IMG/VR virus record: IMGVR_UViG_2541047695_000003
Origin: a virus
Lineage: Duplodnaviria > Heunggongvirae > Uroviricota > Caudoviricetes
Direction: 5' to 3' (one strand)
Length of the DNA stretch: 34,489 nt
Each line of letters opens with the position of its first letter. Position 1 is the stretch's first letter. The position numbers were made by a program, and so were the translations under genes. Positions 2,769-19,175 of the stretch are shown here, piece by piece. Under the pieces are notes generated by a model. It ran no database searches, was not told the DNA's origin, and worked only from the letters and a program-made list of their open reading frames with translations.

Positions 2769-2786
2769 GCGGGGGATCGGGCGTGC
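2756..2786. other. GC-rich island next to the last iteron; candidate cohesive-end (cosN-like) site
   Basis: GCGAGGGGCAAAAGCGGGGGATCGGGCGTGC inside otherwise AT-rich non-coding DNA; the terminase is GpA (cos) type. Confidence 0.25.
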
Positions 2787-2858
2787 ATAGATATTATATA
2801 ACACATTCGCTACGCTCATGTGTAAAACTAAAAACAACAAATAACCAAAAAGATAATT

Positions 2859-2878
2859 AGGAGGGCGTAGCCCGACTG
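2859..2878 (+). repeat. Left copy of a 20-nt direct repeat AGGAGGGC-nnn-GCCCGACTG
   Basis: AGGAGGGCGTAGCCCGACTG; differs from the right copy only in the 3 central nt of the GGGC/GCCC dyad. Confidence 0.7.
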
Positions 2879-2920
2879 CGCGAAGCGCTAACCAATTACT
2901 TCTAGTAACAACTAATTTAA

Positions 2921-2939
2921 ACTAGATGATACTAGATGG
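2921..2939 (+). repeat. CTAG-rich repeat ACTAGATGATACTAGATGG
   Basis: Near-identical to 3123-3140; further CTAG motifs at about 2901, 2956, 3057 and 3074. Confidence 0.6.
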
Positions 2940-3122
2940 TCTTAGAAGGAATTAACTAGTTTGCTCGCTCGCTTCGCTCACTCTCAAACGTCTGCGACGC
3001 CACTGCGTGGCATCGAGAATCACTTCTGAAAGGATTTTCTCGAAAGGGATTTAATACTAGTTACTAACTGATTCTAGAAAGATAGTAATAATCACTTTGA
3101 AGATAATAGTAGTTAACTGGTT

Positions 3123-3140
3123 ACTAGATGATTCTAGATC
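3123..3140 (+). repeat. CTAG-rich repeat ACTAGATGATTCTAGATC
   Basis: Second copy of the 2921-2939 motif; followed by ATCACTT, which also occurs at about 3020 and 3091. Confidence 0.6.
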
Positions 3141-3167
3141 ACTTTAATGATCATGAAAGGTATTGGT

Positions 3168-3197
3168 ATCCCTTCGGGATTGCAACCTTCGGTTGCT
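3168..3197 (+). other. Two abutting UUCG-capped stem-loops (candidate structured RNA or processing site)
   Basis: ATCCC-TTCG-GGGAT (3168-3181) immediately followed by GCAACC-TTCG-GGTTGC (3182-3197); no U-tract after either. Confidence 0.5.
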
Positions 3198-3289
3198 AAA
3201 TTGCTTCCTGATTATTATTTCTCCAAAAGAAAGATTATTATATTCTAAAGATACTTCTTCGTTTTGATCATAATTTAATCAAATCATGA

Positions 3290-3309
3290 AGGAGGGCTTT
3301 GCCCGACTG
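3290..3309 (+). repeat. Right copy of the 20-nt direct repeat
   Basis: AGGAGGGCTTTGCCCGACTG, 431 bp downstream of the left copy. Confidence 0.7.
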
Positions 3310-3346
3310 AATACAATCACCTTTCATAATAACAAGAATTTTCTCT

Positions 3347-3378
3347 TTATAAATAATAGTGAACTTACTTGATTCACT
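3347..3378 (+). promoter_or_regulatory. TTATAAATA box plus AGTGAA...TTCACT leader hairpin upstream of the first rightward gene
   Basis: TTATAAATA 3347-3355, AGTGAA 3358-3363, TTCACT 3373-3378; near-identical arrangement at 30229-30268. Confidence 0.5.
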
Positions 3379-3398
3379 TTCTTTTAGAGGATACCACT

Positions 3399-3848
3399 AT
3401 GATCAATACTAAAACTCCTTTCGTACTTCTGGGTCTGGACTCTGAAAACTATGGTAACTTCCATATGCTAGAAGTTTTCGCTCATCGTGGTTATAACATC
3501 ATTCGTCATTCCGAAGACTCCAACTACTCAACTGCTTTCTACGCTTTAAAACGAAATGGTCGTCCTACTGTGATCATCGACTGTTTTACTGATGAGGGTC
3601 GTCTTCAATACAACGATATTCCAGCAATTATTGTTCGTGATGATCTGCCGTTTCAAGTCCGTTCCGGTGACATTGACCTGGGTAGCTTCTTGACTCTTCG
3701 TGAACTGGATGAAGCAATGTTTAATTACGGTAAAGAAACCGCTCAGGAAGCCCCAGAACAAGATGAGGAAGACGAAGACTACGCACCAATCGCTTTCTCT
3801 TCTCACGGTGGCTTCTACGGTTACGACGAAGGCTTAGATATGCTGTAA
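3399..3848 (+). CDS. Acidic early protein, 149 aa, unknown function
   Basis: ATG 3399 with AGAGGA SD (the 3369 start in the track is TTG); optimised codons; 28 D+E against 11 K+R; tail EAPEQDEEDEDYAPIAFSSHGGFYGYDEGLDML. Confidence 0.85.
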   Translation: MINTKTPFVLLGLDSENYGNFHMLEVFAHRGYNIIRHSEDSNYSTAFYALKRNGRPTVIIDCFTDEGRLQYNDIPAIIVRDDLPFQVRSGDIDLGSFLTLRELDEAMFNYGKETAQEAPEQDEEDEDYAPIAFSSHGGFYGYDEGLDML

Positions 3849-3883
3849 GTTAGGTCAACCCTTTGGCATCTTGTCAAGGGGTA

Positions 3884-3912
3884 TTGACAAAAATTTCTGA
3901 CTTTTTTATGAT
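3884..3912 (+). promoter_or_regulatory. Sigma70-type promoter
   Basis: TTGACA (3884-3889), 17 nt spacer, TATGAT (3907-3912); a second TTGACA at 3921-3926 lacks a good -10. Confidence 0.6.
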
Positions 3913-3968
3913 TATCGAACTTGACAACTTTGAACCTATTTGACCTAGATTTGTAAAGAGGATGTAAC

Positions 3969-4301
3969 ATGAAAGAATTTACCATCACTAAATCCCTGTA
4001 TGACTGGACTGTTAAAATCTCCGGCAAAACCGTTTCTGTAACCCCTAGCCATGTAGAAAATGATTGGGGCGTATCCCGTGAAACTATCTCCCGTAGTATG
4101 CATGTTCCGTTTGATCTGATGACCTTAACTGGTATTCATGCAATGCTGGAAGTTCGCGAGCAATTCGAAGCTGGTAATCACAATGCAACTCCAGTTAGCA
4201 ATCACCTTCTTACTAATGAAGAACGTGAAATCATCGAAAACTGGCGTTATGAATATGCGATTCCTTATTATGAAGAAGACCAAGTAGAAATCGATTGGTG
4301 A
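3969..4301 (+). CDS. Hypothetical early protein, 110 aa
   Basis: ORF with AAGAGGA SD; no motif recognised. Confidence 0.8.
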   Translation: MKEFTITKSLYDWTVKISGKTVSVTPSHVENDWGVSRETISRSMHVPFDLMTLTGIHAMLEVREQFEAGNHNATPVSNHLLTNEEREIIENWRYEYAIPYYEEDQVEIDW

Positions 4302-4311
4302 TAAATTTCTA

Positions 4312-4347
4312 TTATAAATAAAATTGTTCCGGTTGAGATGCCGGAAC
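4312..4347 (+). promoter_or_regulatory. TTATAAATA box followed by GTTCCGG...CCGGAAC hairpin
   Basis: TTATAAATA 4312-4320; stem 4326-4332/4341-4347; an orphan AGGAGG follows with no start codon at the right spacing. Confidence 0.45.
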
Positions 4348-4389
4348 TAGGAGGATCAATCACTAAACCGTTTAAGGGGAATTAATACT

Positions 4390-5196
4390 ATGAATACTGT
4401 TACCGTTATGAATACTGCTAAAACTGCTTCCGTGTCTCTGGTTGTTGATAACACCAAACCGCTGACCATGTCTTCCCGTCAGATCGCTGAATTTACCGGA
4501 AAGAAACACTTTCACGTAAAACGCGACATTCGCGAAATGCTGATTACCTTAGAATTAGATGAATCCAAATTTGGATGCATCTTTTTTGACCAATATGGAC
4601 GCGAGCAAACAGAATATCACTTGAATGAAGAACTGACTCTGACTCTTGTCACTGGTTACAATATCCAGATGCGAAACGCGGTTATTCAGGAATGGAAGCG
4701 ACTGAAAGAAGAAAATGAAAAACTTCGCTCTACTCCGGTTAACCCGTATGCAGACTTTGAAGAAACAGACTGGATCGAACTGGCATTAAAGAAAACTCGC
4801 GAAAATAAAAAGCTGATTGAACTTCATGTTCGCAAATCCGTAGATAGCCATTCAATGACGCGTCTGTTAGGCGCTAAAAAGGGCGCTACGAAGGTTAAAG
4901 AAGCACTGACGGCCTTACGTACTGCTGGATACATCGAGCGCGTCTATGATGAAAATAACAAGCCGTGTGGGTATGTTGCTAATGATTCTTCTCTCTCTTT
5001 CTGCCGCATGAATGCTCACTACCAACTTGAGTTTACTGTTGATGTGCTTCCGGTGCTGGTTGAATTGGGTGTTTTGGAAGAAGAACAAAAAGCAACTCTG
5101 AATCTTCCTAAGCCGAACAACACTATTCTGATTCAAAATAAAGCGGCTGAACGTCTCCGTCAGAATGTTGGATCACTGGAAGTCTTCGGACTGTAA
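4390..5196 (+). CDS. rha: Rha-family phage regulatory protein with a C-terminal extension
   Basis: N-terminal LTMSSRQIAEFTGKKHFHVKRDIREML matches the Rha-domain pattern as I recall it; AAGGGGA SD. Confidence 0.7.
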   Translation: MNTVTVMNTAKTASVSLVVDNTKPLTMSSRQIAEFTGKKHFHVKRDIREMLITLELDESKFGCIFFDQYGREQTEYHLNEELTLTLVTGYNIQMRNAVIQEWKRLKEENEKLRSTPVNPYADFEETDWIELALKKTRENKKLIELHVRKSVDSHSMTRLLGAKKGATKVKEALTALRTAGYIERVYDENNKPCGYVANDSSLSFCRMNAHYQLEFTVDVLPVLVELGVLEEEQKATLNLPKPNNTILIQNKAAERLRQNVGSLEVFGL

Positions 5197-5202
5197 TTAA
5201 TC

Positions 5203-5236
5203 GCCCGGCGCATAATTGCGCTGGGCTTTTTGTTTT
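5203..5236 (+). terminator. Rho-independent terminator of the rightward early unit
   Basis: GCCCGGCGC-ATAATT-GCGCTGGGC followed by TTTTTGTTTTT. Confidence 0.8.
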
Positions 5237-5332
5237 TATAGATAACAGCATTTTTGCTGGCATCTATAGATCAGTCCAGATTTGGACTCAACTTAGAAAT
5301 GAGCGCAGTTTTGCGCCGATTGTTTTACATAC

Positions 5333-5356
5333 AAAAAAGCCACTCCGAAGAGTGGC
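5333..5356 (-). terminator. Rho-independent terminator of the minus-strand HTH operon
   Basis: GCCACTC-CGAA-GAGTGGC preceded by A6 on the + strand, which is T6 after the stem on the minus strand. Confidence 0.75.
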
Positions 5357-5371
5357 AAAGAGAATCAAAAC

Positions 5372-5605
5372 TCAAAAACCTGTTGCTTCTACGATCTGAC
5401 CATCACCGATCTGAACATAGAATTTAATGTCTAACTTCTTCATATTCTTATAGAATTGGGCAATTGAAATCCCATGTTCACTAAGAATCTGTTCTTTCGC
5501 TTCCTTACCACGATCCGCTGTATAATAAGCGTAGGCAATATCAGCCATTTGTTCAGCGTTAAAACGGGCAGGACGACCGCGAGTAGCTTTAGTAGTCATA
5601 GTCAT
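5372..5605 (-). CDS. Small HTH DNA-binding protein, paralog B
   Basis: TRGRPARFNAEQMADIA...GISIAQFYKNMKKLDIKFYVQIGDGQIV; GGAGA SD fits the third-codon ATG (5599) better than 5605. Confidence 0.8.
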   Translation of the reverse strand: MTMTTKATRGRPARFNAEQMADIAYAYYTADRGKEAKEQILSEHGISIAQFYKNMKKLDIKFYVQIGDGQIVEATGF

Positions 5606-5616
5606 TTCTCCAAATT

Positions 5617-5634
5617 AAAGTGAATGTTCACTTT
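5617..5634. promoter_or_regulatory. 18-bp palindrome AAAGTGAAtgTTCACTTT between the two HTH genes
   Basis: Perfect 8-bp arms with a 2-nt centre, so too tight for a full-length RNA hairpin; same GTGAA/TTCAC arms as the leader hairpins. Confidence 0.5.
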
Positions 5635-6239
5635 TATTTAGAGGACTTACATTTTATCGGAAAAAGTTCTCCATCGTCAATACTCATAAAGAACTCTGCC
5701 TTAATCCCGTACTTCTTCAACCGTGAATAGTATGTACCCCGACTTATATCAACCTTGCGCAGCACTTCAAAGAACCCTTTAGGATCGTTGTAATAGTGGC
5801 TGTATCGCACGTTAGCGAGTTCTACAAACAATTCCCTTGTATCACCATAGCCTTTCTTGAAAGCCTCGTTACGATAGCGTGTAATAGCGTGATTCAATCT
5901 CTTCTGTTTCAACACTTCTCGGATCGGCTTCCACTGCAACCTATAGATAGGACCGTCATCAATGCGATAATAACGCTTGATATCAAAATCAAACCAATCT
6001 CGGACTCGCTGAAACTCTGTCTGTGAGGTGCGATACTTCTTAAAGAAGTTATGAATATCGGTATACCCATGATCACGATACAACTCGATTAAAATCTGTT
6101 TAGCTTCCTCACGACTAAAGCCAGATGTTGTGTAATCAGTCTTCTTGTGATGGTGCTTAACTGGCAAACGATATTCATGATCGGTACAACAAGAAAAGGC
6201 TAATTCTACTTCATCTCTTTGTTGCTGATTAATTAGCAT
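5634..6239 (-). CDS. Tandem double-HTH DNA-binding protein, paralog C (two modules)
   Basis: 201 aa; each half repeats the paralog pattern ([12 protein letters not shown]...[10 protein letters not shown] and [26 protein letters not shown]); AAGGGGG SD; divergent from the large terminase. Confidence 0.85.
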
Positions 6240-6326
6240 ACAACCCCCTTAAATATTAATACCCGTATTTATCAAAATATCAACAATTTAATAAATACCT
6301 TCATATTTCGTAATGAGGGTAATTAC

Positions 6327-8234
6327 ATGAAACTAATTTCTAATAAGGCCAAATTAAAAAAGATTCTCAGAAATGCAGCCAAATATATTACGCCACCGCC
6401 TAAACTCCTTCCATCGGAATGGTGCGAAGCTAATATGGTGCTGGTAGATGGTCCTCAAGCTGGGGATAAAGTTAAATTGCTGTCATTCCAGAAAGGTATG
6501 ATTGATGCTCCTTTCCTTGAGAACAAGAAAAAGTATGTTCTGATGACCAGTGCGCAGATCGGAAAGACTACCATCCTGAACGGCATCCTGTTTAACCAGA
6601 TGGCTAACGATCCATGCAATATGATTATCGGACAATCAACCGCTAAAGAAATGTCTCAATATCTCGCTGGTAAGATCCGACCGTCTATCGAAGCATGTGA
6701 TGCATTAAAAGACGTGGTTACAGACAAGAATGATCGCAATGCGGTTAACAACAATAACCAACTCCAGCTAAAAACGAATCACTTCCTGTACATGGTATCG
6801 CTTACCAGTCCATCAACCCTGCGCGGTAAGACTGCAAAGGTCGGACTACTAGACGAAATCGATGCTGCTACAGCCTCAGAAGAAGGTGATCCGGTGGCAC
6901 TGGCTGCTAACCGTTTAACTACCTTTGGCGATGAAGGCCGATTAGTCGTATCCAGTACCCCGACCAGTAAGCTCGGAAGCATTAACCAGCAATGGTTATC
7001 AAGCGATATGCGTATGTTTTTTGTTCCGTGTCCTCATTGCGGGGAACACCAGGTGATCGAGTGGGAAAACGTTCAATTTGAATGGCGTAACATCGATGGT
7101 AAGAACTTACCCGATCCTGATACCGCTCGTTATATTTGCCCCCACTGTAAGAACGCATGGACAGAAGGGGAACGAATCAGGGCAGTAGCGCAAGGCGAGT
7201 GGAGAGCAACCCGTGAAAGTGAAGTAGCAGGATTCTGGATTAGCCGTCTGTATTCACCTTTCAGCACGATCCGCGCTTGTGTGGTTGATTTTAGTCATGC
7301 GTGGCAATCCTTTGATTTACAATCATTTTATAACACCGTGTTAGGCAAGGTATACGATGATCAGGACACGGCAGTAGAAGCAAATGAACTGGAACAACTC
7401 AAAACAGATGTTTCTATCGAGAATATCCCTGATGACGTGATTTTCTTGTGCTCAGGAATTGACCAGCAATTGGATCGCGCAGAATCTACCATCTTAGGTG
7501 TAGCGAAAGATAAGGTTTACATTCTGGATCACCGTAGCTTTTACGATCATAACTGTGAACGATACGAATCACCTGTATGGGATCGTCTGGTTAACTTCAA
7601 GAAAACCAAATTCTATAACGTTAATGGTGAACGTGTGCCAATGCTCGCCAGCTTCCTCGATACATCAAACGGTCGATTCACTCAAGCCGGATACCGTATT
7701 TGTGGTAAGTGGAAGAACCTACACGCTATTAAAGGTAGTTCATCTGGTAATGCTCCAGTGATTCCGGTTAAACCTACCCGCACAGGTGGTCATGAATTGC
7801 TTATGCTGGGCGTTAACGTTGGTAAATCCGCTGTTCGTGAAATGCTGGTTAGAAACCTGAAAGATAATCCTCATATTGGCTTAGAAATATCAGAAACCGT
7901 TCCTGATGATTATCTCGATCAGCTTTTGAGTGAATCCATCAAGCGTACTACTACTGGTGTTCGTTGGGTGAAAAATCCAGGTAGTACCCGAAACGAGGCT
8001 CTCGACTGTCTGGTTTATAGCTATGCTGCTTCTCGCTACGTCCTTTCAAAAATGTCATGGGATAAACTCATTGCAATGAAAGACAGCTTAAACAGCGTTA
8101 AAGAAGAACCCGTAAAAGCTCCTGAATCGCAATCTGACGAGCAAATCGAAGAAACTAAGCCAATCACACGACCGCAACGTCAAAACATCGCCAGACGCCC
8201 AAATAGAGGCCGTAGCTGGGTAACATCGTTCTAA
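6327..8234 (+). CDS. terL: Terminase large subunit, GpA (lambda A) family
   Basis: 635 aa; Walker A-like [10 protein letters not shown]; zinc-ribbon CPHCGEHQ...CPHCKNAW; position ahead of the portal. Confidence 0.95.
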
Positions 8235-8306
8235 TAACTCGCCGTCCTTCGGGGCGGCTTACTCCTAAATATTGTTAATCCAATAACAATTAAATAAGGG
8301 GTAATT

Positions 8307-8804
8307 ATGAGTTTAGAACTAATTCCCTTAGTAATTCGTAAAGGCGAAAAAATCACGCTGGCGAATGAAGAGGGTGTAACAATTCAGGTAGGAAATAATA
8401 ATAAAGGTATCATTTATCAGGTTGATGATACTCCGGCTAATCACGAGATTAAAACCTTAGATTTTGCCGAAGGTAAATATACCATCGTAATAACTTTGGA
8501 AGAAGAACTGATATCAATGCAGGAATTAACTGTTTTACCAGTATTCGCCAAACAATCCAAAAAAGAATATCTGCGGGAAACTATCGCCTTAATCGAGCAA
8601 GTTATTTTCGCCCGTTTATCTGGGGACGAAGCCGCATTATCAGCAATGACAGTGAAAGGGAATACTTTCGCCTATGAGTCATTGGCTGTTCTCCAGACTC
8701 TAAAAGTCGATTATGAACGTCAACTGTCTAAATTAATTCAAGCCGAACGACGTAAACAGGGAATTAGCCCGATTAAAAATATCAAATTACGTCTTACGCG
8801 ATAA
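8307..8804 (+). CDS. Head-completion protein with gpW-like C-terminal half and an 80-aa N-terminal extension
   Basis: Sits between terminase and portal like lambda W; C-terminal helix-hairpin-helix pattern recognised by eye only. Confidence 0.75.
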   Translation: MSLELIPLVIRKGEKITLANEEGVTIQVGNNNKGIIYQVDDTPANHEIKTLDFAEGKYTIVITLEEELISMQELTVLPVFAKQSKKEYLRETIALIEQVIFARLSGDEAALSAMTVKGNTFAYESLAVLQTLKVDYERQLSKLIQAERRKQGISPIKNIKLRLTR

Positions 8805-8814
8805 GGGGTAAATC

Positions 8815-10326
8815 ATGTTTAATCTTTTTCGACGCAAAAAGGCGGTAGAAACTCCAGTTAAAACTAATCACCGCCAGCAACAACCAAAAATTTTCATCGA
8901 TAAGCAAGTAGAAAAATTCCAGAAATCTCTGGCGACTCGTAGTTTAGGACTGGTTGGTGATCGTATTGATGGATCACTTCAACAAGACACCATTACAGGA
9001 ACCTTCAATAAGGCTCTCAAATCGAATGGTAAGCGCCTTTATGATCAGGGTCGTACTCTGGCCTTAAACACTTCCGTAGGCAGTCGCTACACGCAATACA
9101 TCACCGATATGGTGGTAGGTACTGGCCTAGATCCGAAGCCGTCAGTTGTTAAACCAAATGGAAAACTTGATAGCGCACTGAATAAGCAGATCGAGAATGC
9201 TTTCTGGAAGTGGGCGCAGAATGCTAAACGCTTCTCTCGCAATGGTCGTTTTAACTTCCGTGAATTGCTGGTAATGGCTGAACGTGAGCGCGTTATGGGT
9301 GGTGAGTGTTTCATCGTTTTAACTAAAGAAAACAATGAGTTAAATGTTTCTATCCTGTCTGCTGATAAATGCGACTGGTCGCTAAACCGTGAAATAAGCA
9401 AAGAGCGTGCGATATATCAAGGTGTGGAGTATGACGTAGAGACGATGAAGCCCGTAGCATACTGGTTTCGTAAAATCAACCTACTGACTCAGACCTACAC
9501 TGGTGATAACTATCGCGTCGATGCTTCGCAAGTATGCCATTATTATCAACCACTTGCGGCTGAATCCCTGCGTGGTGTGACTGACTTCCTGCCAGTGATT
9601 AAGGATATCGCACATCAAGACGCATTCCGCGAAACTGCGATCGTCCAGAAACGTATTGCGGCTAGTTCTATGGGCTTTATCGAACGTCCGAAAGATTCTG
9701 GTGACGATTTTGATACTGGTGAAGAGGATGAACAATATCAAGCGCCGGAAGTAGTACAGGATTTTGCACCTGGTACTATTCAGGAATTACCGGAAGGGGC
9801 AACGATCAAGAGCATCCAGGCGACGCAAAGCGGTGATGATTTCAAATCCTTTAACGATGCGATGTATGGTAGCGTCGCGATGGGCTTAGGCGTGTTTAAA
9901 CAGGGCTTGACTGGTGACACTAGCCAAATAAATTACAGCGCCAGTAGATTCGGTGATTTAATGCAACGACACCGCGTTAAAGCACTGCAAAACAAATTGA
10001 TTGAAACAGTGGTATTGCCAATTTTCGAAGCATATCTACGCCATTATTCCGCGCGTGGTATTGTTCCGATTCGTATTACTGCAATTCCGCATATTATCGA
10101 TAACACTACTATTATTCGTCCTCGTTTTGAATCCGTCGATCCATTTAAAGACGTAAGCGCCGAGATTGCTTTAATTGATAACGGACTTAAATCACGTACT
10201 GCCGTTATTCTTGAACGTGGTGATGATCCTGAAAAAGTATTCTCAGAGATTCAAGCCGAAAAGAGCGCACTAAATATTATCGTTAATGGCGAGGGTGAAG
10301 AAAAAAATTCCCCAGCCGATCCCTAA
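8815..10326 (+). CDS. Portal protein (lambda gpB-like)
   Basis: 503 aa, synteny TerL-W-portal-protease, AAGGGGTAA SD. Confidence 0.85.
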   Translation: MFNLFRRKKAVETPVKTNHRQQQPKIFIDKQVEKFQKSLATRSLGLVGDRIDGSLQQDTITGTFNKALKSNGKRLYDQGRTLALNTSVGSRYTQYITDMVVGTGLDPKPSVVKPNGKLDSALNKQIENAFWKWAQNAKRFSRNGRFNFRELLVMAERERVMGGECFIVLTKENNELNVSILSADKCDWSLNREISKERAIYQGVEYDVETMKPVAYWFRKINLLTQTYTGDNYRVDASQVCHYYQPLAAESLRGVTDFLPVIKDIAHQDAFRETAIVQKRIAASSMGFIERPKDSGDDFDTGEEDEQYQAPEVVQDFAPGTIQELPEGATIKSIQATQSGDDFKSFNDAMYGSVAMGLGVFKQGLTGDTSQINYSASRFGDLMQRHRVKALQNKLIETVVLPIFEAYLRHYSARGIVPIRITAIPHIIDNTTIIRPRFESVDPFKDVSAEIALIDNGLKSRTAVILERGDDPEKVFSEIQAEKSALNIIVNGEGEEKNSPADP

Positions 10327-10371
10327 TAACCAACGGGGGCGCAATGTCCCCAATTAATTAAAGGTGATTAA

Positions 10372-12372
10372 ATGCTTAAATTTCGCCGCGATCTTAACGG
10401 TTACGGTGGAGTTATTAACGAAGGGCATAACGATCAATACGAATTTGAAATTGCTTTCTCCAGTGAACAGCCGTATCAGCGCCAATTCTGGGATGAGCAA
10501 AATCAAGAGATGGTGGTACTAGATGAAATTCTGGTACATACACCGGAAGCGGTTGATCTGTCTCGTCTGAATAATAACGCTCCGTTGCTGTTCAATCATA
10601 ATTTCGATAATCATTTAGGTGTAGTCTGCGACGCTCGAATCGATGCGGATAACGTAGGTCGTGCTCTGGTTAAATTCTCTAAGCATGGCACTTTGGCTAA
10701 TGATATTCGCAATAAAGTCATTGAAGGTACGATGGAAAAAATTTCTGTCGGCTATGACATTAAAGAATATCACATCGATTACGCCAAAGGGCAATTGATT
10801 GTTACTAAGTGGGCGCCCTATGAACTCTCATTTGTCACCGTTCCTGCTGACGATACGGTCGGTTTAAATCGCTCTCTAAATACTATCACAGTTAATTTGG
10901 AGGCTAAACGCGATATGACTAAAGAACAAATTGAAGAAATCAAAGAAGAACAAGAATCCGCTCAGGTTGAAGAAACTCCGGTAGAAGAAATTAAAGAATC
11001 GGAAGTTGAAGAAACTCAAGAGCGCCAAGTTGAAGAGAATAAAGAAGATGAAAATCTCGAAGACGGAAAAGACGCTGAACATCCTGAAAGTGTTGATGAT
11101 GATAGTTCAACTGTTCGGGAAGAAGAAATAAAAGAAGAACGTGAAGCTGCTCCGGTTGAAGAAGAAAAAATCGAAGAAGTGGCTGAACGTTCCGAAGAAG
11201 ACGAATTAGAAATTCGCGAAATTGCACGCGAACTAAATATTGATGACGAAGAATTGAAACGCGCATTGGCAATTAAAGACATGACGCCGGAAGCATTCCG
11301 CACTAAGGCACTAAATAATCTCGTCAATGCTCAACGTAATAACGAACAAATTAAGGACTCTAAAATGGAAAAAACTTTTGACCTGAACAACGTAATTCGC
11401 TCTCTGGTAGATGGTGCTGCTCTGGGTGCTAACGAAGCTGAATATTCCTCTATGGCTGCTGGTGCTGCGATGCAGCGTGGTCGTGCTGCTCGTGGTGGCT
11501 CTGTATTCGTTCCGGCTGCTGCTCTGCGTGCTGCTGCTGATGGTAACACCAAAACTACTCTGACCGCTGTAACTGACGAAAAACTGATGACTGAATCCTA
11601 CATCGAAATGCTGATGCCGGAATCTGTTCTGGGTCGTCTGGGTGTGACTGTTTACAGTGGCTTGAACTCCCCGACCGCTATTCCAAAAATGACCGCTTCC
11701 AGCGTTGACGCTTTCGGCTTCGTTGATGAAAACGGTGCTGCACCGGAAAGCAAAGCTGAATTTGCGAACGTGAAACTGTCTCCGAAAACTTTTGCTGGTG
11801 GCAACCCGATCAGCCGTCAGTCGCTGAAAACCGTTCCGGGCATCGCTACCCTGATCACTGATCACATTAACAAAGCTGTTCGTATCAAACTGGAACAACT
11901 GATTCTGTCTGATAAAGAAAATGCTCGTGGTCCGGCTGGTCTGGTTAAGCAACTGGTAGACGCTAGCCGCGTTACCAAGAAAGCTGCTTTCTCTTATAAA
12001 GACTTCCTGAAAGAAATTGCAGCACTGACCGACGCTGGCGTTCCTGCTCAGGCGATCAAGTTTGCAATGAGCGGTGCAACTGCTGCTGAACTGGAATCTA
12101 CCCTGAAAGATAACGGCGTTTCCGGTTATATCATCGAAAACGGCAAACTGGCTGGTTACGAAGTAGTTACTTCTGGCGTTATCCCGGCAGACCACATCGT
12201 TCTGGGTGACTTCTCCGGTATTACTATCGGTGAGTGGGGAGGTCTGGAACTCGACATGGATCTAACTACATATAGGGATCGTGGTGCGGTAGTGCCTCGT
12301 ATCTTTGTAGATTTGGACTACGTTGTAGCACAGCCGGAAGCCCTGAAAGTTCTTCACATCTCCGCTGAATGA
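10372..12372 (+). CDS. Prohead protease - acidic scaffold linker - HK97-fold major capsid protein fusion
   Basis: 666 aa; N-domain resembles caudoviral prohead serine proteases; residues about 185-330 are E/K-rich; C-terminal 336 aa resemble the HK97-type capsid family. Confidence 0.9.
   Translation: MLKFRRDLNGYGGVINEGHNDQYEFEIAFSSEQPYQRQFWDEQNQEMVVLDEILVHTPEAVDLSRLNNNAPLLFNHNFDNHLGVVCDARIDADNVGRALVKFSKHGTLANDIRNKVIEGTMEKISVGYDIKEYHIDYAKGQLIVTKWAPYELSFVTVPADDTVGLNRSLNTITVNLEAKRDMTKEQIEEIKEEQESAQVEETPVEEIKESEVEETQERQVEENKEDENLEDGKDAEHPESVDDDSSTVREEEIKEEREAAPVEEEKIEEVAERSEEDELEIREIARELNIDDEELKRALAIKDMTPEAFRTKALNNLVNAQRNNEQIKDSKMEKTFDLNNVIRSLVDGAALGANEAEYSSMAAGAAMQRGRAARGGSVFVPAAALRAAADGNTKTTLTAVTDEKLMTESYIEMLMPESVLGRLGVTVYSGLNSPTAIPKMTASSVDAFGFVDENGAAPESKAEFANVKLSPKTFAGGNPISRQSLKTVPGIATLITDHINKAVRIKLEQLILSDKENARGPAGLVKQLVDASRVTKKAAFSYKDFLKEIAALTDAGVPAQAIKFAMSGATAAELESTLKDNGVSGYIIENGKLAGYEVVTSGVIPADHIVLGDFSGITIGEWGGLELDMDLTTYRDRGAVVPRIFVDLDYVVAQPEALKVLHISAE
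11365..12372 (+). CDS. Nested in-frame major capsid protein from an internal start
   Basis: AAGGA (11353-11357) 7 nt before the in-frame ATG at 11365; codon usage switches to gct/ggt/cgt/ctg from this point. Confidence 0.5.
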   Translation: MEKTFDLNNVIRSLVDGAALGANEAEYSSMAAGAAMQRGRAARGGSVFVPAAALRAAADGNTKTTLTAVTDEKLMTESYIEMLMPESVLGRLGVTVYSGLNSPTAIPKMTASSVDAFGFVDENGAAPESKAEFANVKLSPKTFAGGNPISRQSLKTVPGIATLITDHINKAVRIKLEQLILSDKENARGPAGLVKQLVDASRVTKKAAFSYKDFLKEIAALTDAGVPAQAIKFAMSGATAAELESTLKDNGVSGYIIENGKLAGYEVVTSGVIPADHIVLGDFSGITIGEWGGLELDMDLTTYRDRGAVVPRIFVDLDYVVAQPEALKVLHISAE

Positions 12373-12504
12373 ACTCCTGTAGAACCTTCTGAACCTTCCC
12401 CCGATTTGGGGGAAGAAAATCTGATTCCATCTCAGGAAGAAGAAGTTCAAGAGGTTACGGCGAAAGCCACAGTTAAAAAAGAACGTAAGACTAAAGCAAA
12501 ATAA
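12373..12504 (+). other. 43 in-frame sense codons after the capsid UGA, closed by TAATAA: candidate read-through extension
   Basis: Hand translation TPVEPSEPSPDLGEENLIPSQEEEVQEVTAKATVKKERKTKAK; no internal start with an SD; the terminator follows the extension, not the UGA. Confidence 0.35.
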
Positions 12505-12509
12505 TAATT

Positions 12510-12537
12510 AGCCCTGCCTTAATGGTGGGGCTTTTTT
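12510..12537 (+). terminator. Rho-independent terminator or attenuator after the capsid region
   Basis: 9-bp stem 12510-12518/12524-12532 (two G-U pairs) followed by T6. Confidence 0.7.
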
Positions 12538-12567
12538 GTATGTAAATACTCCATAAAGGGGGTAACT

Positions 12568-12858
12568 ATGTTCAAATTATCAGAATCACAATTATCAAGA
12601 ATGTTTCGAAGTGCTCCTGTATTTTCGGTGGAAGGTGGTAAATCAATTCGTGCTTATCATGAAATTACCACTACCGACGAACAAGGGGTAATTACAGAAT
12701 CAGAATTTCTATTTTGTCGTGAGGGAGACTTAAATCAGGGTGATGTTGTCATTGTAGACGGTGAACGCTTCAAAGTTCAATACGTTAAGCGCAATGGTGA
12801 TAATACTTCTGATTGCTTTATTGCTCGTGCAGGGGGTACACATGCTCGCTACCGTTAA
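12568..12858 (+). CDS. Head-tail adaptor or head-closure protein
   Basis: 96 aa directly after the capsid gene; GDVVIVDGERFKVQYV motif typical of head-tail joining proteins; AAGGGGGTAA SD. Confidence 0.7.
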   Translation: MFKLSESQLSRMFRSAPVFSVEGGKSIRAYHEITTTDEQGVITESEFLFCREGDLNQGDVVIVDGERFKVQYVKRNGDNTSDCFIARAGGTHARYR

Positions 12859-13264
12859 TAATATGCCTAGACTGAAAATTAAACGCGCCTTGCAGGATAT
12901 TATCGAACAAGATTTAGGTCTGGCTTTAAACGTAGAACAAACTCAGCAAGGCTTTAGTGATGATGTGGTTTGTTGGATTACCGGAATGAATGAGACTTAC
13001 AATAGGGTCCGTGGTGGTAATGCAATGCAAGCTGAATGCGTTATCGAAATGCAGTTGTATTCTCAGAATCATGAAACCAAAATTCATGAGGGTATTTGCC
13101 AGATAATCCAGATTCAGCCTGATAATCCACGTTTTAAAGATTTGGGCTTCTCTATTTCAGATATCACTCCAGTAGCTTCTAATACCGATTATGACGATGA
13201 TTCTAGTGATGGGGGTATCGTTGGGACACTTAGCCTTAAATTTTCTTATCTAGCGCGTTTTTAA
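12842..13264 (+). CDS. Neck or tail-completion protein
   Basis: Start chosen at ATG 12842 (AGGGGG SD, 17-nt overlap with the upstream gene) rather than 12761; ATG 12863 is an alternative. Confidence 0.65.
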   Translation: MLATVNNMPRLKIKRALQDIIEQDLGLALNVEQTQQGFSDDVVCWITGMNETYNRVRGGNAMQAECVIEMQLYSQNHETKIHEGICQIIQIQPDNPRFKDLGFSISDITPVASNTDYDDDSSDGGIVGTLSLKFSYLARF

Positions 13265-13273
13265 GGGGTAATA

Positions 13274-14107
13274 ATGAATATTACACAAGATAACTTAGAC
13301 ATTTTCACGGGGTCACATGTTGAAGTCTCCGTGTCTACTATGGTGGATAACCAGCCGGACTTTTTCGATCCTGCATTTAGTCCTATCGAGAACATCGCAG
13401 CATTCCCGACGATAACCGAATCCACAGAGATCCAGACGTTAGAAGAGTATGATCAGGACGCTACGGGGAAACTTGCTGGTTATCGTAAACTTGAATCAAC
13501 TACGTTAGTAGTAAACCGTGTTCTGGATGACGAACATCAAGACATGTTGATGAAAGCGGTGAATGATAAAACTCCTTTACGCTTTCGTATGTTCTATGTT
13601 GTGAACTCTGGCTATAGTGCTGCTAACACAGGTTACTACGTCATTTTTGACGCTTATGTCTCGTCACATAAAACAAAATCCGGTGATAACAAAGTTACTA
13701 CAATCGAGTTTAAATTAGAACCTGATGGCGGGATTCTAGATCGCGGTATTGCTACCGAAGGCCGGATCTTACGTCAAGGTGATTTTGGTTTGGGCGCTGG
13801 TGTACATCCATTCACAGGTCCGATTGATAGCGAAGCATTAGCCGGAAACCGTTTCGTAACTTATCAGGGATCGAGCGTATCTAATCCATTTAGTGCTGAT
13901 ACTTCACTAATTCACGTTCAACCTAATGAAGATGGTGGATGGCAATTAACTTGCACCGCTTCCGGCGCACCACGTTTACGAGTTCGCACAGTCCAGAAAG
14001 ACGGTAATTCTGGATGGGTGAAAGTGTATTCCACAGAAGAAAAACCGACACCAGCCGAGATTGAAGCCGTTTCTATCCATGACCGGATCGACTTCGGGGA
14101 ATACTGA
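13274..14107 (+). CDS. Tail-tube (major tail protein) paralog with a C-terminal fibre-like domain
   Basis: Residues 1-155 align by eye with the 156-aa tube protein (DIFTG/DIFSG, AAFP, LMKAVND/LIKATED, ...DG); C-terminus shares the KPTPAEI block and preceding segment with the fibre. Confidence 0.8.
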   Translation: MNITQDNLDIFTGSHVEVSVSTMVDNQPDFFDPAFSPIENIAAFPTITESTEIQTLEEYDQDATGKLAGYRKLESTTLVVNRVLDDEHQDMLMKAVNDKTPLRFRMFYVVNSGYSAANTGYYVIFDAYVSSHKTKSGDNKVTTIEFKLEPDGGILDRGIATEGRILRQGDFGLGAGVHPFTGPIDSEALAGNRFVTYQGSSVSNPFSADTSLIHVQPNEDGGWQLTCTASGAPRLRVRTVQKDGNSGWVKVYSTEEKPTPAEIEAVSIHDRIDFGEY

Positions 14108-14180: not shown

Positions 14181-17100
14181 ATGCAGTCGATCCAATTTAA
14201 ACGAACAAATGTTTCTGGCAAAAAACCAACGCCGGAACAATTACAGGTCGGTGAGGTAGCAATCAACCTTAAAGACCATGTTATTTTTACCAAAGACCGA
14301 GATCATGAAGTAGTTCAAATCTCTGTTTCTCCTGAAACTCACGCGGCACTAGAATCTAAAGTTGATGCTAATAAAAAAGAACTGGATAGCACAATTGCAG
14401 TAAATGACCGCAATATTCACGCTAAAGTAGATGAAATTAAACAAACTACTGATGCAACCATCGCAGCAAATCACGCAGAAATTAACAATAAAGTTGATGT
14501 AATTAAACGCGAAACCGACGCGACAATCGAGGCCAATAAAAATAAAGCTGCTTCCGATCTTGCTGGTGTTAAAGCTGAATTGTCGGATACCATCAACGCT
14601 AATAAAAATGCGGCTGCTGTAGCAACTCAGGAACTGGACACCCGCATCAATAAAAAAGTTGATGATATTAAATCCCGTACCGATGCAACCATCGCAAGCA
14701 ATGACAAAGCAATCAATGACAAAGTTGATTTGATTAAGGCAGAAACTGACCGCACTATCGCAGCAAATCACGCCTATGCGGAAAATCAGTTAACTGACAC
14801 CTACAATAACCTTACTGGTGTGATTGCAGCCAATAAGCAAGAGGCAGCGGATAACGTCGCAGCATTAACCCGTGATGTTGAAGCCAAAAATACAGCAATT
14901 CATAGCAAAGTTGACAATAACAAGTCTTACACTGATTCTGAATTGGCACGTTTAGAAAGCCGTATTGATGCAGCCGATGGATCTGCTGATGGCAAGTACA
15001 TCAAAAAACACGTAAACACTTATACTGATGGTTATTTGCTGTCTAAGACCGCAAACTATTTTGATGATCCAAATGCGCGTAATCTTGATTACTTTGGTGC
15101 ATTCCGCATGAATGACCTGGCGGGTCATATTGCAATGATCTTGCATGTTCCGCATCCATCTGGTGTTAATCATGCTCGTGGCTTCGAGTTCACTTATGGG
15201 TCTAATCCACATGCTACTGTAAGAACATACGGCTATGATGAATTGGGACATTTGGCATATTCTCACCGCATGTATCATGAAGGTGATAAACCTACTCCGG
15301 CTGAAATTGGCGCATATTCGAAAGCAGAAATTGACCGACTGTTCCAGAAGACGCTTAATTTTGGTATCGAGGGTGGTTGGTTTAAACTAGGCACTTTGAC
15401 AATGCCACAACAACACGGTCGCACGGCTAAGATCCGTTTGGTTGGTGGTAACGGTTATAACGTAGGACATAATGGACAAGCCAATATTATCGAATTGGTG
15501 ATTCGATGCGGCAACAATAGCCCGAAAGGTGTTGTATTCAATGCGTATTATACTATTTGGCATCATGAACAACATTTTTGCGCTATTCCAACCGATGGCG
15601 ACAATTACGATCTTTACGCTTACTACGGTGCACATACAGGATTTGTTTTAGCAGAATATCAAGTTTCTTCCGGTGGTGTTTCTTTAAACCTGTTGGATAC
15701 TCCTGAATATCTGGGTGGTGAAAAACCTGTTGCAGATGAAATTTTTGATGCTCTTAACATTTCATCGTTCAATAACTTTAGCAACCGTGGGACGTTAAAT
15801 TTTGCTGGCAATCATCAAGGCCAATATGATATTGAGCATTTAAACGAACAACCGACAAATGCTAAAAAGATGTTGCGTCGCTTCCGTAGTTGTGCACCAG
15901 CTACAATCTGGCATGAGACAGTTGATGATAACGCATATCGTCTTGCTACTGGATACGAAGATACAAATCAGGAATTATTGCTGTCAGCAACATCCGGGTT
16001 ACATGTCAAGAAATTAACATTGGATGGCGGTGTTACTGGAAATTCTGGTATTGATATTCGTCGAGGACCAAACGAATCAAGCCATTTTAATTTCATGGAT
16101 TATCGCACTGGACAAGATGTTCGTAATGGCTGGTTTGGCTTCGGTGATGGTCAGACCAAAGATTTTATTTGGTGGAACGATAACGGTCAAAACTCTATAA
16201 ACCTGATTGAAGATGGTGAATTGCATATTACTGGCGGTAAAGGCCAGAAAATTGTAATGAATAGCGAAGTTGCATTATCTGAAAATGCTCGTTTGGCTGT
16301 CAAAGGTGGTAACTATGGTTTAATCCTTCGTAATGATGGTTCTAGCTTCCATATTCTTACTACCGATTTAAAAGATTCCTTTGGGACGTGGAACACTCGT
16401 AGACCATTTAGTTATGATTTCGCCGAAGGTGGATTAGATCTAGGTGGCACAGCTACCGCACGCTGTTTACATCTGGGAATTGATGGTAGCACCCGCATCG
16501 AAGATAATATGGTGTTTAGATCAGGGTCTCGTCAGTCAATGGACTATATTGAATTAATCCATTGGGGTAACAGTAATACCGCTCGTAACAACGTTTTGAG
16601 TATGAAAGACTCGAAAGGATTCCTTGCTGAATTTGAACGCGTGGGGGGTACTAACGGCGTTAAAACCAGATTCTTTGGCGAAACATTCACTGACGGTACA
16701 TTATACCTAAATCAGATGAATAATAGCTCTGAACGATTCTCTATCAATAACTGGGGAAATTCAGAAGTTGGTCGCGCGGCAGTGATGGAAGTCGGTGATT
16801 CCAAAGGTTATCACTTCTATACTGAACGTAGGACAGATAACAGTTTGATGTTTGATGTTGCTGGCGCTTTTACTGTGCATGGACCTTCCGGGATTACTAT
16901 CAAAAACTCTGCTGGTGCTCGCCACGTCTGGTTTAGAGATGATAGCGATACGGAAAAGGCTGTTATCTGGGCTACAGATGAGGGTATTTTACATATTCGC
17001 AATAACCACGGTGGACAATTTACACATCACTTCCAGGGCGCGATGATTAAACTGGAAGGGCGTGTTCCTTATGCCGCAGATCAAGGACTTATCCGTGGTG

Positions 17101-17705
17101 AGGTTTCTGGTGGTGCATATGTTGCATGGAGAGACCGACCTGCTGGTTTGTTGGTTGACTGTCAACAAAGCGTTGATAGTGCTCATGCTATTTGGAAAGC
17201 GGTTGATTGGGGGCGTAACTACATCGCTGCTATGGACGTTCATTGTCCCGGTGATAGTAATAATACTGCGGCAGCGGTTCTTCATGTTCAGGGTGCTGAT
17301 TATCAATTCCATGCAAGTGGAGAATTTCATGCCACTGGTAACGGAAACTTTAACGATGTTTATATTCGTTCCGATCGTCGTCTGAAAATTAATGTTGAAG
17401 ATTACGAAGAAAATGCGGTGGATAAGGTAAATAAACTCAAAGTTAAAACCTACGATAAAGTTAAATCTCTTAATGACCGAGAAGTTATAGGTCATGAGAT
17501 TGGTATTATCGCACAGGATTTACAAGAGGTATTACCGGAAGCTGTTAAAACCGCAAAAATTGGTGGTTTTGATAACCCAGAAGAAATTTTAACAATTTCA
17601 AACTCCGCAGTGAACGCGCTTTTAATTAAAGCGGTCCAAGAAATGAGCGAAGAAAATAAACTTCTTCGTGAACGTCTTGCTGCAATTGAAGCTAAATTAG
17701 GGTAA
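14181..17705 (+). CDS. Tail fibre with N-terminal anchor, coiled-coil repeats and a C-terminal self-cleaving chaperone domain
   Basis: 1174 aa; MQSIQFKRTNVSGKKPTPEQLQVGEVAINL fibre N-terminus; about 6 repeats of KVDxIKxxTDATIAxN; C-terminal SDRRLK motif. Confidence 0.9.
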   Translation: MQSIQFKRTNVSGKKPTPEQLQVGEVAINLKDHVIFTKDRDHEVVQISVSPETHAALESKVDANKKELDSTIAVNDRNIHAKVDEIKQTTDATIAANHAEINNKVDVIKRETDATIEANKNKAASDLAGVKAELSDTINANKNAAAVATQELDTRINKKVDDIKSRTDATIASNDKAINDKVDLIKAETDRTIAANHAYAENQLTDTYNNLTGVIAANKQEAADNVAALTRDVEAKNTAIHSKVDNNKSYTDSELARLESRIDAADGSADGKYIKKHVNTYTDGYLLSKTANYFDDPNARNLDYFGAFRMNDLAGHIAMILHVPHPSGVNHARGFEFTYGSNPHATVRTYGYDELGHLAYSHRMYHEGDKPTPAEIGAYSKAEIDRLFQKTLNFGIEGGWFKLGTLTMPQQHGRTAKIRLVGGNGYNVGHNGQANIIELVIRCGNNSPKGVVFNAYYTIWHHEQHFCAIPTDGDNYDLYAYYGAHTGFVLAEYQVSSGGVSLNLLDTPEYLGGEKPVADEIFDALNISSFNNFSNRGTLNFAGNHQGQYDIEHLNEQPTNAKKMLRRFRSCAPATIWHETVDDNAYRLATGYEDTNQELLLSATSGLHVKKLTLDGGVTGNSGIDIRRGPNESSHFNFMDYRTGQDVRNGWFGFGDGQTKDFIWWNDNGQNSINLIEDGELHITGGKGQKIVMNSEVALSENARLAVKGGNYGLILRNDGSSFHILTTDLKDSFGTWNTRRPFSYDFAEGGLDLGGTATARCLHLGIDGSTRIEDNMVFRSGSRQSMDYIELIHWGNSNTARNNVLSMKDSKGFLAEFERVGGTNGVKTRFFGETFTDGTLYLNQMNNSSERFSINNWGNSEVGRAAVMEVGDSKGYHFYTERRTDNSLMFDVAGAFTVHGPSGITIKNSAGARHVWFRDDSDTEKAVIWATDEGILHIRNNHGGQFTHHFQGAMIKLEGRVPYAADQGLIRGEVSGGAYVAWRDRPAGLLVDCQQSVDSAHAIWKAVDWGRNYIAAMDVHCPGDSNNTAAAVLHVQGADYQFHASGEFHATGNGNFNDVYIRSDRRLKINVEDYEENAVDKVNKLKVKTYDKVKSLNDREVIGHEIGIIAQDLQEVLPEAVKTAKIGGFDNPEEILTISNSAVNALLIKAVQEMSEENKLLRERLAAIEAKLG
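17370..17702 (+). other. Peptidase S74-type intramolecular chaperone auto-processing domain of the fibre
   Basis: SDRRLKINV...IGIIAQDLQEVLPEAV...LLRERLAAIEAKLG matches the endosialidase / T5 L-shaped-fibre C-terminal chaperone pattern. Confidence 0.75.
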
Positions 17706-17743
17706 TTGGAAAGCGGGGAGAAATCTCCGCTAAGGATTCTTAT

Positions 17744-18040
17744 ATGGGATATTGGGTAAGTAGTGAAATTAATACTAAAATCGATGCTTTAAAATGGCAT
17801 GTATTTGATATTCCTAACGGCTATGGTACTGCTCGTGCTGGTGTCGCTGTAATGCGTCATAATGCTGGTGGTGGGTGGTCTGATGCACATATTAACGTAG
17901 ATGGTTTGACCGTTGCTCGTCGTCGTGGTGGGACCAATTGGGGATCTACTATAAATTCGTTTGTTCCTGCTGGCTGCACCGTCTCCTTTGGTTTAGGGGG
18001 TGAAGGTGGTGTTGAATATTTTAAATTCATGGAGTTTTAA
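17744..18040 (+). CDS. Small Gly-rich protein, FDIPNG paralog 1 of 3
   Basis: 98 aa; conserved xW, FDIPNG(W/Y), GL, WG, V(S/T)F, YFKF blocks shared with the next two genes. Confidence 0.85.
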   Translation: MGYWVSSEINTKIDALKWHVFDIPNGYGTARAGVAVMRHNAGGGWSDAHINVDGLTVARRRGGTNWGSTINSFVPAGCTVSFGLGGEGGVEYFKFMEF

Positions 18041-18042
18041 TT

Positions 18043-18348
18043 ATGGCTGGATGGATAAATCAAAGAATGTCAAACGCTATTAGTATTTGGGCTAATGGTG
18101 GATATTTTGATATCCCCAACGGCTGGGTTACTGATTCATGCGGAATTGTTTTTGCTCATATGGAAGCCATTAACGGTGCTGGTGATCTTGATTCTGAATT
18201 GGCTGTAAATGGATTGATTGAATCAGGTCATCATGCTGGTGATGCTGGGAGTTGGGGCGCTAGTTCTTTAGTTGGCGCTGGTGCTACCGTTAGCTTTACA
18301 TTGGGTAAAGGTAGTTTGCATTATTTTAAATTCAGGAGAATGCACTAA
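18043..18348 (+). CDS. Small Gly-rich protein, FDIPNG paralog 2 of 3
   Basis: 101 aa; starts 2 nt after the paralog 1 stop. Confidence 0.85.
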   Translation: MAGWINQRMSNAISIWANGGYFDIPNGWVTDSCGIVFAHMEAINGAGDLDSELAVNGLIESGHHAGDAGSWGASSLVGAGATVSFTLGKGSLHYFKFRRMH

Positions 18349-18650
18349 TGGCATTTTGGGTAGATGGCGCTTTGGGGAATAGGGCGGGTAAAGCAAATCA
18401 AGGATGGTTTGATATTCCTAACGGTTGGACAGCCGACGCTTTCGGGACTATTTCATTCTGTGCTCATTCTTCCGGTGGTGGCGGTGGTGACTCTGAATTG
18501 CTTATTCATGGTTTGTGTGTTTCTGGAAGCCATAAGGGTCATGATTGGGGACAGATTCATTCTTGTATTGCACCGCAAGGGGCGGTAATTACCGTTAGCA
18601 CAAATAGGGGGATCGCTCATCTTCGTTATAGACGTTTGAGCAACCGCTAA
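18348..18650 (+). CDS. Small Gly-rich protein, FDIPNG paralog 3 of 3
   Basis: 100 aa; TAATG overlap with paralog 2. Confidence 0.85.
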   Translation: MAFWVDGALGNRAGKANQGWFDIPNGWTADAFGTISFCAHSSGGGGGDSELLIHGLCVSGSHKGHDWGQIHSCIAPQGAVITVSTNRGIAHLRYRRLSNR

Positions 18651-18704
18651 ATAAATAGAATTACGGGTATGTGCCCTATTGTTTAAAATAGAAGGAAAAG
18701 AATA

Positions 18705-19175
18705 ATGACTACTAAATTTGATATTTTTTCTGGTGGCCTCGTTGGTCTGTTTCTGCATGAAGAAGTAACTAACACCGATCTTGACAGTGAAAGCTATCTG
18801 GAAATTCCAGAATGTGCGGCTTTCCCGGAAACTGGTGTAGAACGTTCTACTATCGATGTTCCTAACTTCGGTGGTCCGTATAACCGTAAGCTGGTTGGTC
18901 GTATGTCTGTACCGGATATCGAACTTTCGATCAACTACATGCCGGGTAACGAAGTACACGAAAAACTGATTAAAGCAACCGAAGACGGTAAGCGCGTACA
19001 GCTTAAAATTGCTTACTACATCGACGCTACGAAAAAATCTGGTGTACATATCGCTTATAACGGCTTCCTGTCTAAAACTACCATGACTGGTGGTGAGGAT
19101 GCTGTAGTAGGCCGTACCTTCACCTTTGTAGTAGATGGTGCTCCGGTTAAACAAGCTGTTTTCCAGAAACTCTAA
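18705..19175 (+). CDS. Major tail (tube) protein
   Basis: 156 aa, highly optimised codons, directly upstream of the G/T chaperones, followed by an attenuating terminator. Confidence 0.85.
   Translation: MTTKFDIFSGGLVGLFLHEEVTNTDLDSESYLEIPECAAFPETGVERSTIDVPNFGGPYNRKLVGRMSVPDIELSINYMPGNEVHEKLIKATEDGKRVQLKIAYYIDATKKSGVHIAYNGFLSKTTMTGGEDAVVGRTFTFVVDGAPVKQAVFQKL

Follow-up and report, generated by a model that had tools for sequence, protein, structure and literature searches.

How can a phage produce little maturation protease and much capsid protein when both are encoded by a single uninterrupted reading frame? Genes that fuse protease and capsid occur commonly in phages and prophages, where they are annotated as one protein. 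A 1:1 ratio of the two parts would put about 415 protease-linker copies in a T=7 procapsid, and HK97-type proheads contain far fewer protease copies than that. The question is raised here by an open reading frame (ORF) at positions 10372–12372 (+) of IMG/VR record IMGVR_UViG_2541047695_000003, a stretch of 34,489 nucleotides (the window) that represents a lambda-like siphovirus prophage of Escherichia coli. On the evidence of its sequence and that of its relatives, this ORF is probably a nested gene, expressed as a rare protease-linker-capsid fusion and as an abundant, separately initiated capsid protein. A nested capsid gene would resolve the copy-number puzzle posed by a 1:1 fusion.

The fused frame, its proposed internal start, and the codon step

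Direct reading of the frame bore out the original prediction of a 666-codon ORF without a stop between protease, linker, and capsid (Table 1). Its product belongs to PHROG 617/4523, annotated “major head and protease protein” (PHROG 4523, E=6e-41), and an N-terminal Peptidase_S78 domain of the HK97 gp4 type and a C-terminal HK97-fold domain lie within the same unbroken ORF, as in the known class of fused genes. The letters also confirm an AAGGA motif 7 nt upstream of an in-frame ATG (11365–11367), with the spacer at 11358–11364 and the ATG as codon 332 (M332). The context of this start is A-rich and unstructured; the 61 nt around the ATG have a minimum free energy of −1.5 kcal/mol, which puts them within the 2.6% of the ORF's 61-nt windows that have the least structure. 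An AAGGA with an A-rich spacer is also the type of ribosome-binding site (RBS) found at the tail-tube gene (start at 18705), the other phage gene with a high codon adaptation index (CAI), and the Shine-Dalgarno (SD) energies of the two sites are equal. No sigma-70-like promoter was found within the ORF, where 3.4 would be expected by chance, so a separate internal transcript is not indicated. A start codon in frame and preceded by an RBS of its own lies inside the protease ORF, the arrangement that characterizes nested genes of the lambda C/Nu3 type. The 335-residue capsid precursor that begins at M332 (M332–E666) is proposed to be the major product and the full-length 666-residue protein the minor one.

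Codon usage changes at this point in the frame. The CAI for E. coli is 0.36 for codons 1–331 and 0.69 for codons 332–666, and the best single change point falls at codon 329±4 (gain of 72.2, vs. a maximum of 31.6 in 1000 permutations). This is the largest internal codon step among the window's long ORFs, with no comparable one elsewhere. When Glu and Lys codons were left out, CAI values were 0.28 for the protease, 0.26 for the linker, 0.83 for aa 332–400, and 0.72 for aa 401–620. CTG accounts for 5/23 Leu codons before M332 and 23/24 after it, and AAC for 6/24 and 11/12 Asn codons, respectively; the effective number of codons (Nc), a measure free of weights, falls from 44.4 to 33.1. The protease part (aa 1–175; CAI 0.32) is as low as most genes here. 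Most prophage genes, portal and terminase among them, lie at 0.2–0.4, with a few short ORFs at 0.4–0.5; the exceptions are the tail-tube gene (0.625), whose level is attained after M332, and an ORF at 716–1660 (−) with a value of 0.63. With a single product, each codon of the frame would be translated as often as any other, and translational selection could not differ between the two halves as it does in every lineage.

The strong bias had been described as running on from ATG 11365. Its abrupt onset stands, but it does not last to the stop codon, since the CAI of codons 621–666 returns to 0.36 and these 46 codons include AGG, ATA, CTA, and TTG. The low-CAI tail allele is limited to the window and four close relatives. 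The tails of most other relatives are strongly biased (CAI about 0.65–0.88, a few 0.4–0.5), and the window's tail is only 68–79% identical to most of them in DNA sequence. Judged from these identities, codons 621–666 are a lineage-specific mosaic patch that marks an intragenic mosaic joint. The low-CAI tail was considered as an argument against internal initiation and rejected as such because it is a lineage-specific mosaic allele.

Conservation of the proposed start and of the codon step

The window and 33 close relatives from IMG/VR (89–97% amino acid identity) were treated as one family. The AAGGA, the 7-nt spacer, and the ATG are kept in 33/33 of the relatives; residues 329–331, encoded between AAGGA and ATG, are variable (DSK, EQI, EKN, ESI, or ESK), and indels occur only upstream of the AAGGA. 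In all 33, the CAI is 0.29–0.35 for the protease, 0.38–0.47 for the linker, and 0.69–0.86 for aa 332–400.

More distant fused relatives, at 26–49% identity, were obtained from a profile-based scan. All 35 distinct sequences with 30–49% identity possess an in-frame ATG located 2–16 codons before an F/Y-S/D-L-x-x-x-I/V-R motif. In 13 sequences that are 30–38% identical to the window's protein and fall into 7 clusters below 60% amino acid identity, an in-frame ATG occupies the same alignment position and is preceded, at 7–13 nt, by a literal AAGGA. The Lys codon within the SD is AAG in 13/13 of these, although AAG makes up a background share of only 0.24 of Lys codons in these AT-rich ORFs and is used in 1/13 to 5/11 sequences at other conserved Lys columns. 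By this comparison, the fixed AAG is a sign of constraint on the nucleotides and not on the peptide. The codon step is retained as well, and Nc is lower after the Met (32–43) than before it (41–56) in 35/35 distinct relatives. Codon preferences were then trained on the protease and distal capsid parts and used to score held-out segments, with amino acids of at least threefold degeneracy. For lineages that have this start only, the linker gave a log-likelihood ratio (LLR) of about 0, and the 90 codons that directly follow the Met gave +0.18 to +0.25; in lineages with both this start and the second one described below, the LLR rose in two steps. Change points in the cumulative LLR of single sequences were noisy in the Glu/Lys-rich linkers and were replaced by pooled means of the held-out segments.

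Several observations weigh against an internal start at ATG 11365. The duplex energy of the SD is −10.8 kcal/mol at the upstream start (10372) and −5.8 kcal/mol at 11365; the upstream SD is thus stronger on paper, and the product ratio is not readable from the two RBSs. Ranking of SD energies with a 13-nt anti-SD gave no significant result (fractions 0.02–0.34), and the literal-motif and synonymous-site test was used in its place. The K-D/E...M peptide is also conserved, leaving only the AAG/AAA site free, so protein constraint accounts for part of the conservation of AAGGA. Wider family members, at 25–30% identity, often have Leu in place of the Met, which makes a start of the 11365 type a trait of the subfamily. 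The CAI values depend on the weights used, those of Sharp and Li for E. coli; Nc and the self-trained LLR do not. Finally, codons 621–666 demonstrate that mosaic patches are able to alter codon bias inside the capsid gene.

The capsid precursor, alternative readings, and proposed assembly

The original placement of M332 right where the capsid domain begins proved incorrect. The Phage_capsid match (PF05065) covers aa 407–662 (E=2.1e-26), and the alignment to PDB 8gta also begins at aa 407 (E=3e-24). An AlphaFold2 (AF2) model of aa 332–666, with a predicted local distance difference test score (pLDDT) of 91, contains a pre-domain of three helices (aa 338–347, 353–368, and 382–390), a disordered segment (391–406), and then a canonical HK97 fold; its best Foldseek matches are mature capsid proteins of the HK97 type with 260–290 residues. 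The capsid precursor of HK97, gp5, has an N-terminal helical delta domain that is removed by an S78-family protease. The predicted precursor is similar in having a helical domain upstream of the HK97 fold, the fold match being confirmed by Foldseek. It differs in that its pre-domain comprises 59–65 aa in three helices, compared to 102 aa in HK97, and in that the protease is part of the same ORF, whereas that of HK97 is encoded by an upstream gene.

In roseophage R4C, which has a homologous fused gene, the precursor is encoded by 629 codons, and the virion contains a chain of 268 residues whose N terminus corresponds to about aa 397, some 10 aa upstream of the position matching aa 407; processing is not discussed in the R4C structure paper. 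By analogy, the pre-domain is probably removed at maturation. Since M332 lies ~65 aa upstream of the likely mature N terminus deduced from R4C, the M332 product would still be trimmed. Internal initiation and proteolytic maturation, which the original prediction set against each other, are therefore a false choice, and both probably occur. The pre-domain is conserved in fused and unfused homologues. The latter were sought in an exhaustive search of representative proteins with aa 332–666, in which the matches were mostly fused. Most free-standing capsid homologues carry a further 80–118 aa at the N terminus, resembling a delta domain, and a few begin 8–32 aa before the conserved motif. The sharing of the pre-domain by free-standing and fused homologues makes it an ancient part of the capsid precursor, and the few with short N termini show that a product shaped like M332–E666 exists as an independent gene.

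A second candidate start lies at ATG 10915 (M182), just after the protease domain, and would give a linker-capsid product of 52.7 kDa. In the lambda Nu3 manner, this could be the main nested start, yielding an HK97 gp5-like scaffold-capsid protein, with 11365 minor or unused. Its GGAGG has an SD energy of −9.3 kcal/mol in a region of weak local structure, and a homologous Met with a strong SD after the protease is far more widely conserved, being found in Escherichia phage DCP80 (M180), VP882 (M185), R4C (M189), Bas97 (M217), and the relatives L046–L053. In DCP80-like phages, codon bias is already up at this post-protease start and rises again near the capsid pre-domain. Lineages L054–L080, except L074, lack a Met with an SD after the protease, most of them having no Met there at all, and all of them have the AAGGA+ATG start. 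Each fused gene at 30–49% identity thus keeps at least one internal start, located just before the capsid pre-domain in the window's subfamily and just after the protease in other fused genes. For the window itself, primacy of M182 is improbable. The step is at codon 329 and not 182, the 11-nt spacer is long, and the linker is unoptimized, both here, where its CAI without Glu and Lys equals that of the protease, and in all 33 close relatives. The state of the linker makes M182 at most a minor start in this phage, where its product is probably made at a low level.

The expectation of two products from one frame is supported by the conserved SD and ATG, the fixed AAG, the unstructured RBS, and a codon step in every relative. 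The same features could be read as history, with only the full-length polyprotein being made, a strongly codon-adapted capsid module from another phage having been joined to an AT-rich protease/linker module, and the AAGGA-ATG being a leftover or conserved as peptide. Mosaicism within this very gene is demonstrated by the 3′ 46 codons, a foreign low-CAI allele in the window's lineage, and the fusion occurs widely, always with annotation as a single protein. We nevertheless regard this reading as unlikely. Relatives as distant as 30% identity all show the step, across different hosts, and a historical accident would not persist at the same functional boundary. Furthermore, 7 deep lineage clusters have the synonymous AAG as a fixed codon, and the codon step shifts along with the internal start where that is placed elsewhere (DCP80 and Bas97). 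Alternatively, the AAGGA could act as an internal SD-like pause site, or its codons could specify a cleavage or recognition peptide (K-D/E-x-x-M), in folding or processing of the polyprotein. The K-D/E and Met are conserved as residues, and the probable site of maturation cleavage is no more than about 65 aa away, but this explanation is very unlikely, as it accounts neither for the codon step that starts at the ATG nor for the unstructured A-rich context typical of start sites. It also leaves unexplained the variable residues and the varying distance of the Met from the motif (2–16 codons upstream of it), with a separate SD for each position.

Under the favored nested-gene reading, ribosomes starting at 10372 would make a 73-kDa polyprotein consisting of the S78 protease, acidic linker, pre-domain, and HK97-fold capsid, and many more ribosomes would start at ATG 11365 to make a 35-kDa capsid precursor with the three-helix pre-domain and HK97 fold. 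Both products would co-assemble through their identical capsid parts, with a few shell subunits bringing the tethered protease and linker into the procapsid, and the protease-to-capsid stoichiometry would be set by the ratio of the two initiation rates. The protease would then cut off itself, the linker, and the ~65-aa pre-domain at predicted cleavage sites to leave a mature capsid protein of about 270 aa. A linker-capsid form may be made in addition from ATG 10915, a weaker start whose conservation is wider. A broader generalization is that protease-capsid fusion genes are multi-start nested genes, each lineage having at least one internal SD+ATG after the protease and using the fusion as a minor, protease-delivering isoform, with up to six isoforms in this prophage group; we offer it tentatively and with somewhat more doubt than conviction. 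The six could comprise three N termini (M1, M182, and M332), each with or without a basic tail added by UGA readthrough (see below).

Nested in-frame head-assembly genes are known from lambda (C/Nu3) and Mu (I/Z). Nested protease/scaffold genes have also been described in herpes simplex virus 1 (HSV-1; UL26/UL26.5) and HFTV1 (gp17/gp17.5) (bioRxiv 10.64898/2026.09.13.751334). As in all four, the gene in the window is a single ORF with an N-terminal maturation protease. In systems of the lambda C/Nu3 type, the C-terminal product is made in abundance from an internal in-frame start that has an RBS of its own, the stoichiometry of protease and structural partner depends on how often each start is used, and the shared C-terminal part brings the protease into the procapsid. 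Their nested product is a scaffold, and the capsid gene is separate. Here, by contrast, the nested product would be the capsid precursor itself, so that the shared part would be a shell subunit and the protease would be covalently tethered to the shell and not to a scaffold core. The proposal of a variation on C/Nu3 nesting thus holds for the layout and not for strict membership, because the nested product contains the HK97-fold domain.

Homologous ORFs with a fused S78 protease, linker, and HK97-fold capsid occur in Xp10-like phages, phiHAP-1/VP882, ECO1230-10, the Rhodobacter RcC cluster, and R4C, and the actinophage annotation “major capsid and protease fusion” denotes the same kind of gene; all of these are annotated and discussed as single proteins. 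The capsid-encoding gene in Salmonella phage Gifsy-2, a lambdoid enterobacterial prophage, is reportedly tripartite, with a protease, a central scaffold-like domain, and a capsid protein. The Gifsy-2 protease is annotated as ClpP-type, whereas that of the window is a Peptidase_S78, and its capsid part presumably belongs to a different family. Codon adaptation is flat along the Gifsy-2 gene (0.2–0.4), a comparison that is uninformative since that phage is weakly adapted overall. No report of internal capsid initiation in a fused gene was found in the literature searched, which covered few subscription journals. Nested protease/scaffold genes and fused genes are already known; what appears to be new is a protease-capsid fusion whose nested product would be the capsid protein itself. 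If correct, the arrangement would provide a simple, tunable stoichiometry and encapsidation of the protease by covalent tethering to a few shell subunits, and such loci would need to be annotated with two or three coding sequences (CDSs) rather than one. It would also show that an intragenic step in codon adaptation, combined with a synonymously constrained SD, can reveal nested genes from sequence alone.

Prophage setting and the 3′ end of the capsid gene

Genes in the window are ordered terminase, portal, protease-capsid ORF, head-tail attachment protein, fiber, tail tube, probable tape-measure ORF, and gpJ. The coordinates of these and of the elements discussed above are collected in Table 1.

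Table 1. Coordinates of features in and around the protease-capsid gene of the window
Feature	Position	Strand	Basis or remark
Large terminase, gpA-type	6327–8234		
Portal, lambda-family	8815–10326		
Shine-Dalgarno AAAGGTGAT of full-length ORF	10360–10368	+	Duplex with 16S 3′ end, −10.8 kcal/mol
Full-length ORF (666 aa, 73.4 kDa): protease, acidic linker, pre-domain, HK97-fold capsid	10372–12372	+	
Prohead serine protease domain Peptidase_S78, aa 40–162	10489–10857	+	Pfam PF04586, E=5.6e-10
Acidic Glu/Lys-rich linker or scaffold-like segment, aa 176–331, isoelectric point 4.2	10897–11364	+	
GGAGG, candidate SD 11 nt before ATG 10915	10899–10903	+	GGAGG in 29/34 and GGGGG in 5/34 family members
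In-frame ATG (M182) just after protease domain	10915–10917	+	Candidate Nu3-like nested start
AAGGA, SD of proposed nested capsid gene	11353–11357	+	Direct reading; invariant in 34/34 family members
Proposed nested capsid-precursor CDS, M332–E666 (335 aa, 35.2 kDa)	11365–12372	+	CAI, change point, unstructured RBS
Three-helix pre-domain, aa 332–390, with F-D-L-x-x-V-I-R-S motif	11365–11541	+	AF2, pLDDT 77–94
HK97-fold major capsid domain, aa 407–666	11590–12369	+	Pfam PF05065, PDB 8gta, Foldseek
Low-CAI 3′ patch, codons 621–666 (46 codons)	12232–12369	+	CAI 0.36
TGA stop, in-frame 43-codon stop-free extension (12373–12501), TAATAA	12370–12507	+	Candidate UGA readthrough tail
Intrinsic-terminator-like hairpin and T run	12510–12532	+	Strong; after capsid gene and extension, before head-tail genes
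Tail-tube gene	18705–19175		
Probable tape-measure ORF	19949–22378		Position only; no family match

The stop codon of the capsid ORF is TGA, and the next base is A, in the window, in 33/33 close relatives (which differ in their C-terminal residues), and in a more distant relative, L052, which has the same TGA-plus-extension layout in a fused protein only about 38% identical to that of the window. A stop-free in-frame extension of 28–45 codons is always present, its length alleles differ by whole codons, and it closes with two tandem stops (TAATAA; TGATAA in L052) just before the terminator. The extension in the window reads TPVEPSEPSPDLGEENLIPSQEEEVQEVTAKATVKKERKTKAK. These extensions consist of an acidic, Pro-rich part and a basic tail, which in some alleles resembles an AT-hook (KKVGRPPKAK). 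No conserved start of its own was found for the extension in the window, the close relatives, or L052. This layout suggests UGA readthrough to give a C-terminally extended minor capsid protein; amino acid changes are frequent in the extension, and its function is uncertain for that reason.

The exact protein encoded by ORF 10372–12372 was found in E. coli assemblies, and 49/5426 complete E. coli genomes contain DNA with 80–96% identity; NZ_CP024131 is one complete-genome strain with the prophage. A scan of genome contigs with the protein gave no match, and the phage collection searched held no isolated phage with a closely similar head gene. Inactivated copies were also encountered. The copy in L034 (3001–4996) has a frameshift at codon 393, and the matched gene of H42 (NZ_CP195866.1), where the annotation splits it into a protease part and a capsid part, contains an IS1. 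The record of DCP80 (L001, PQ671644.1) is 141 kb in length and classed as T-even-like (Straboviridae). Its positions 1–13800 hold a lambda-like head module with a large terminase, a probable portal, head genes, and the fused protease-capsid gene, the probable portal and head genes being annotated as hypothetical proteins only; the record may be a chimeric assembly.

Isolated T4-like phages match the window via its tail-fiber gene only. The fiber ORF (14181–17705; 1174 aa) contains a Gp34_trimer domain and an S74 intramolecular chaperone domain, and the region at ~15270–18670 has 79–94% DNA identity to the long tail fiber genes of T4-like phages. This looks like a fiber module that was exchanged horizontally and now sits within the lambda-like prophage. 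At the left end of the window, the high-CAI ORF at 716–1660 (−) encodes 314 aa without a Pfam match and may be a host or moron gene.

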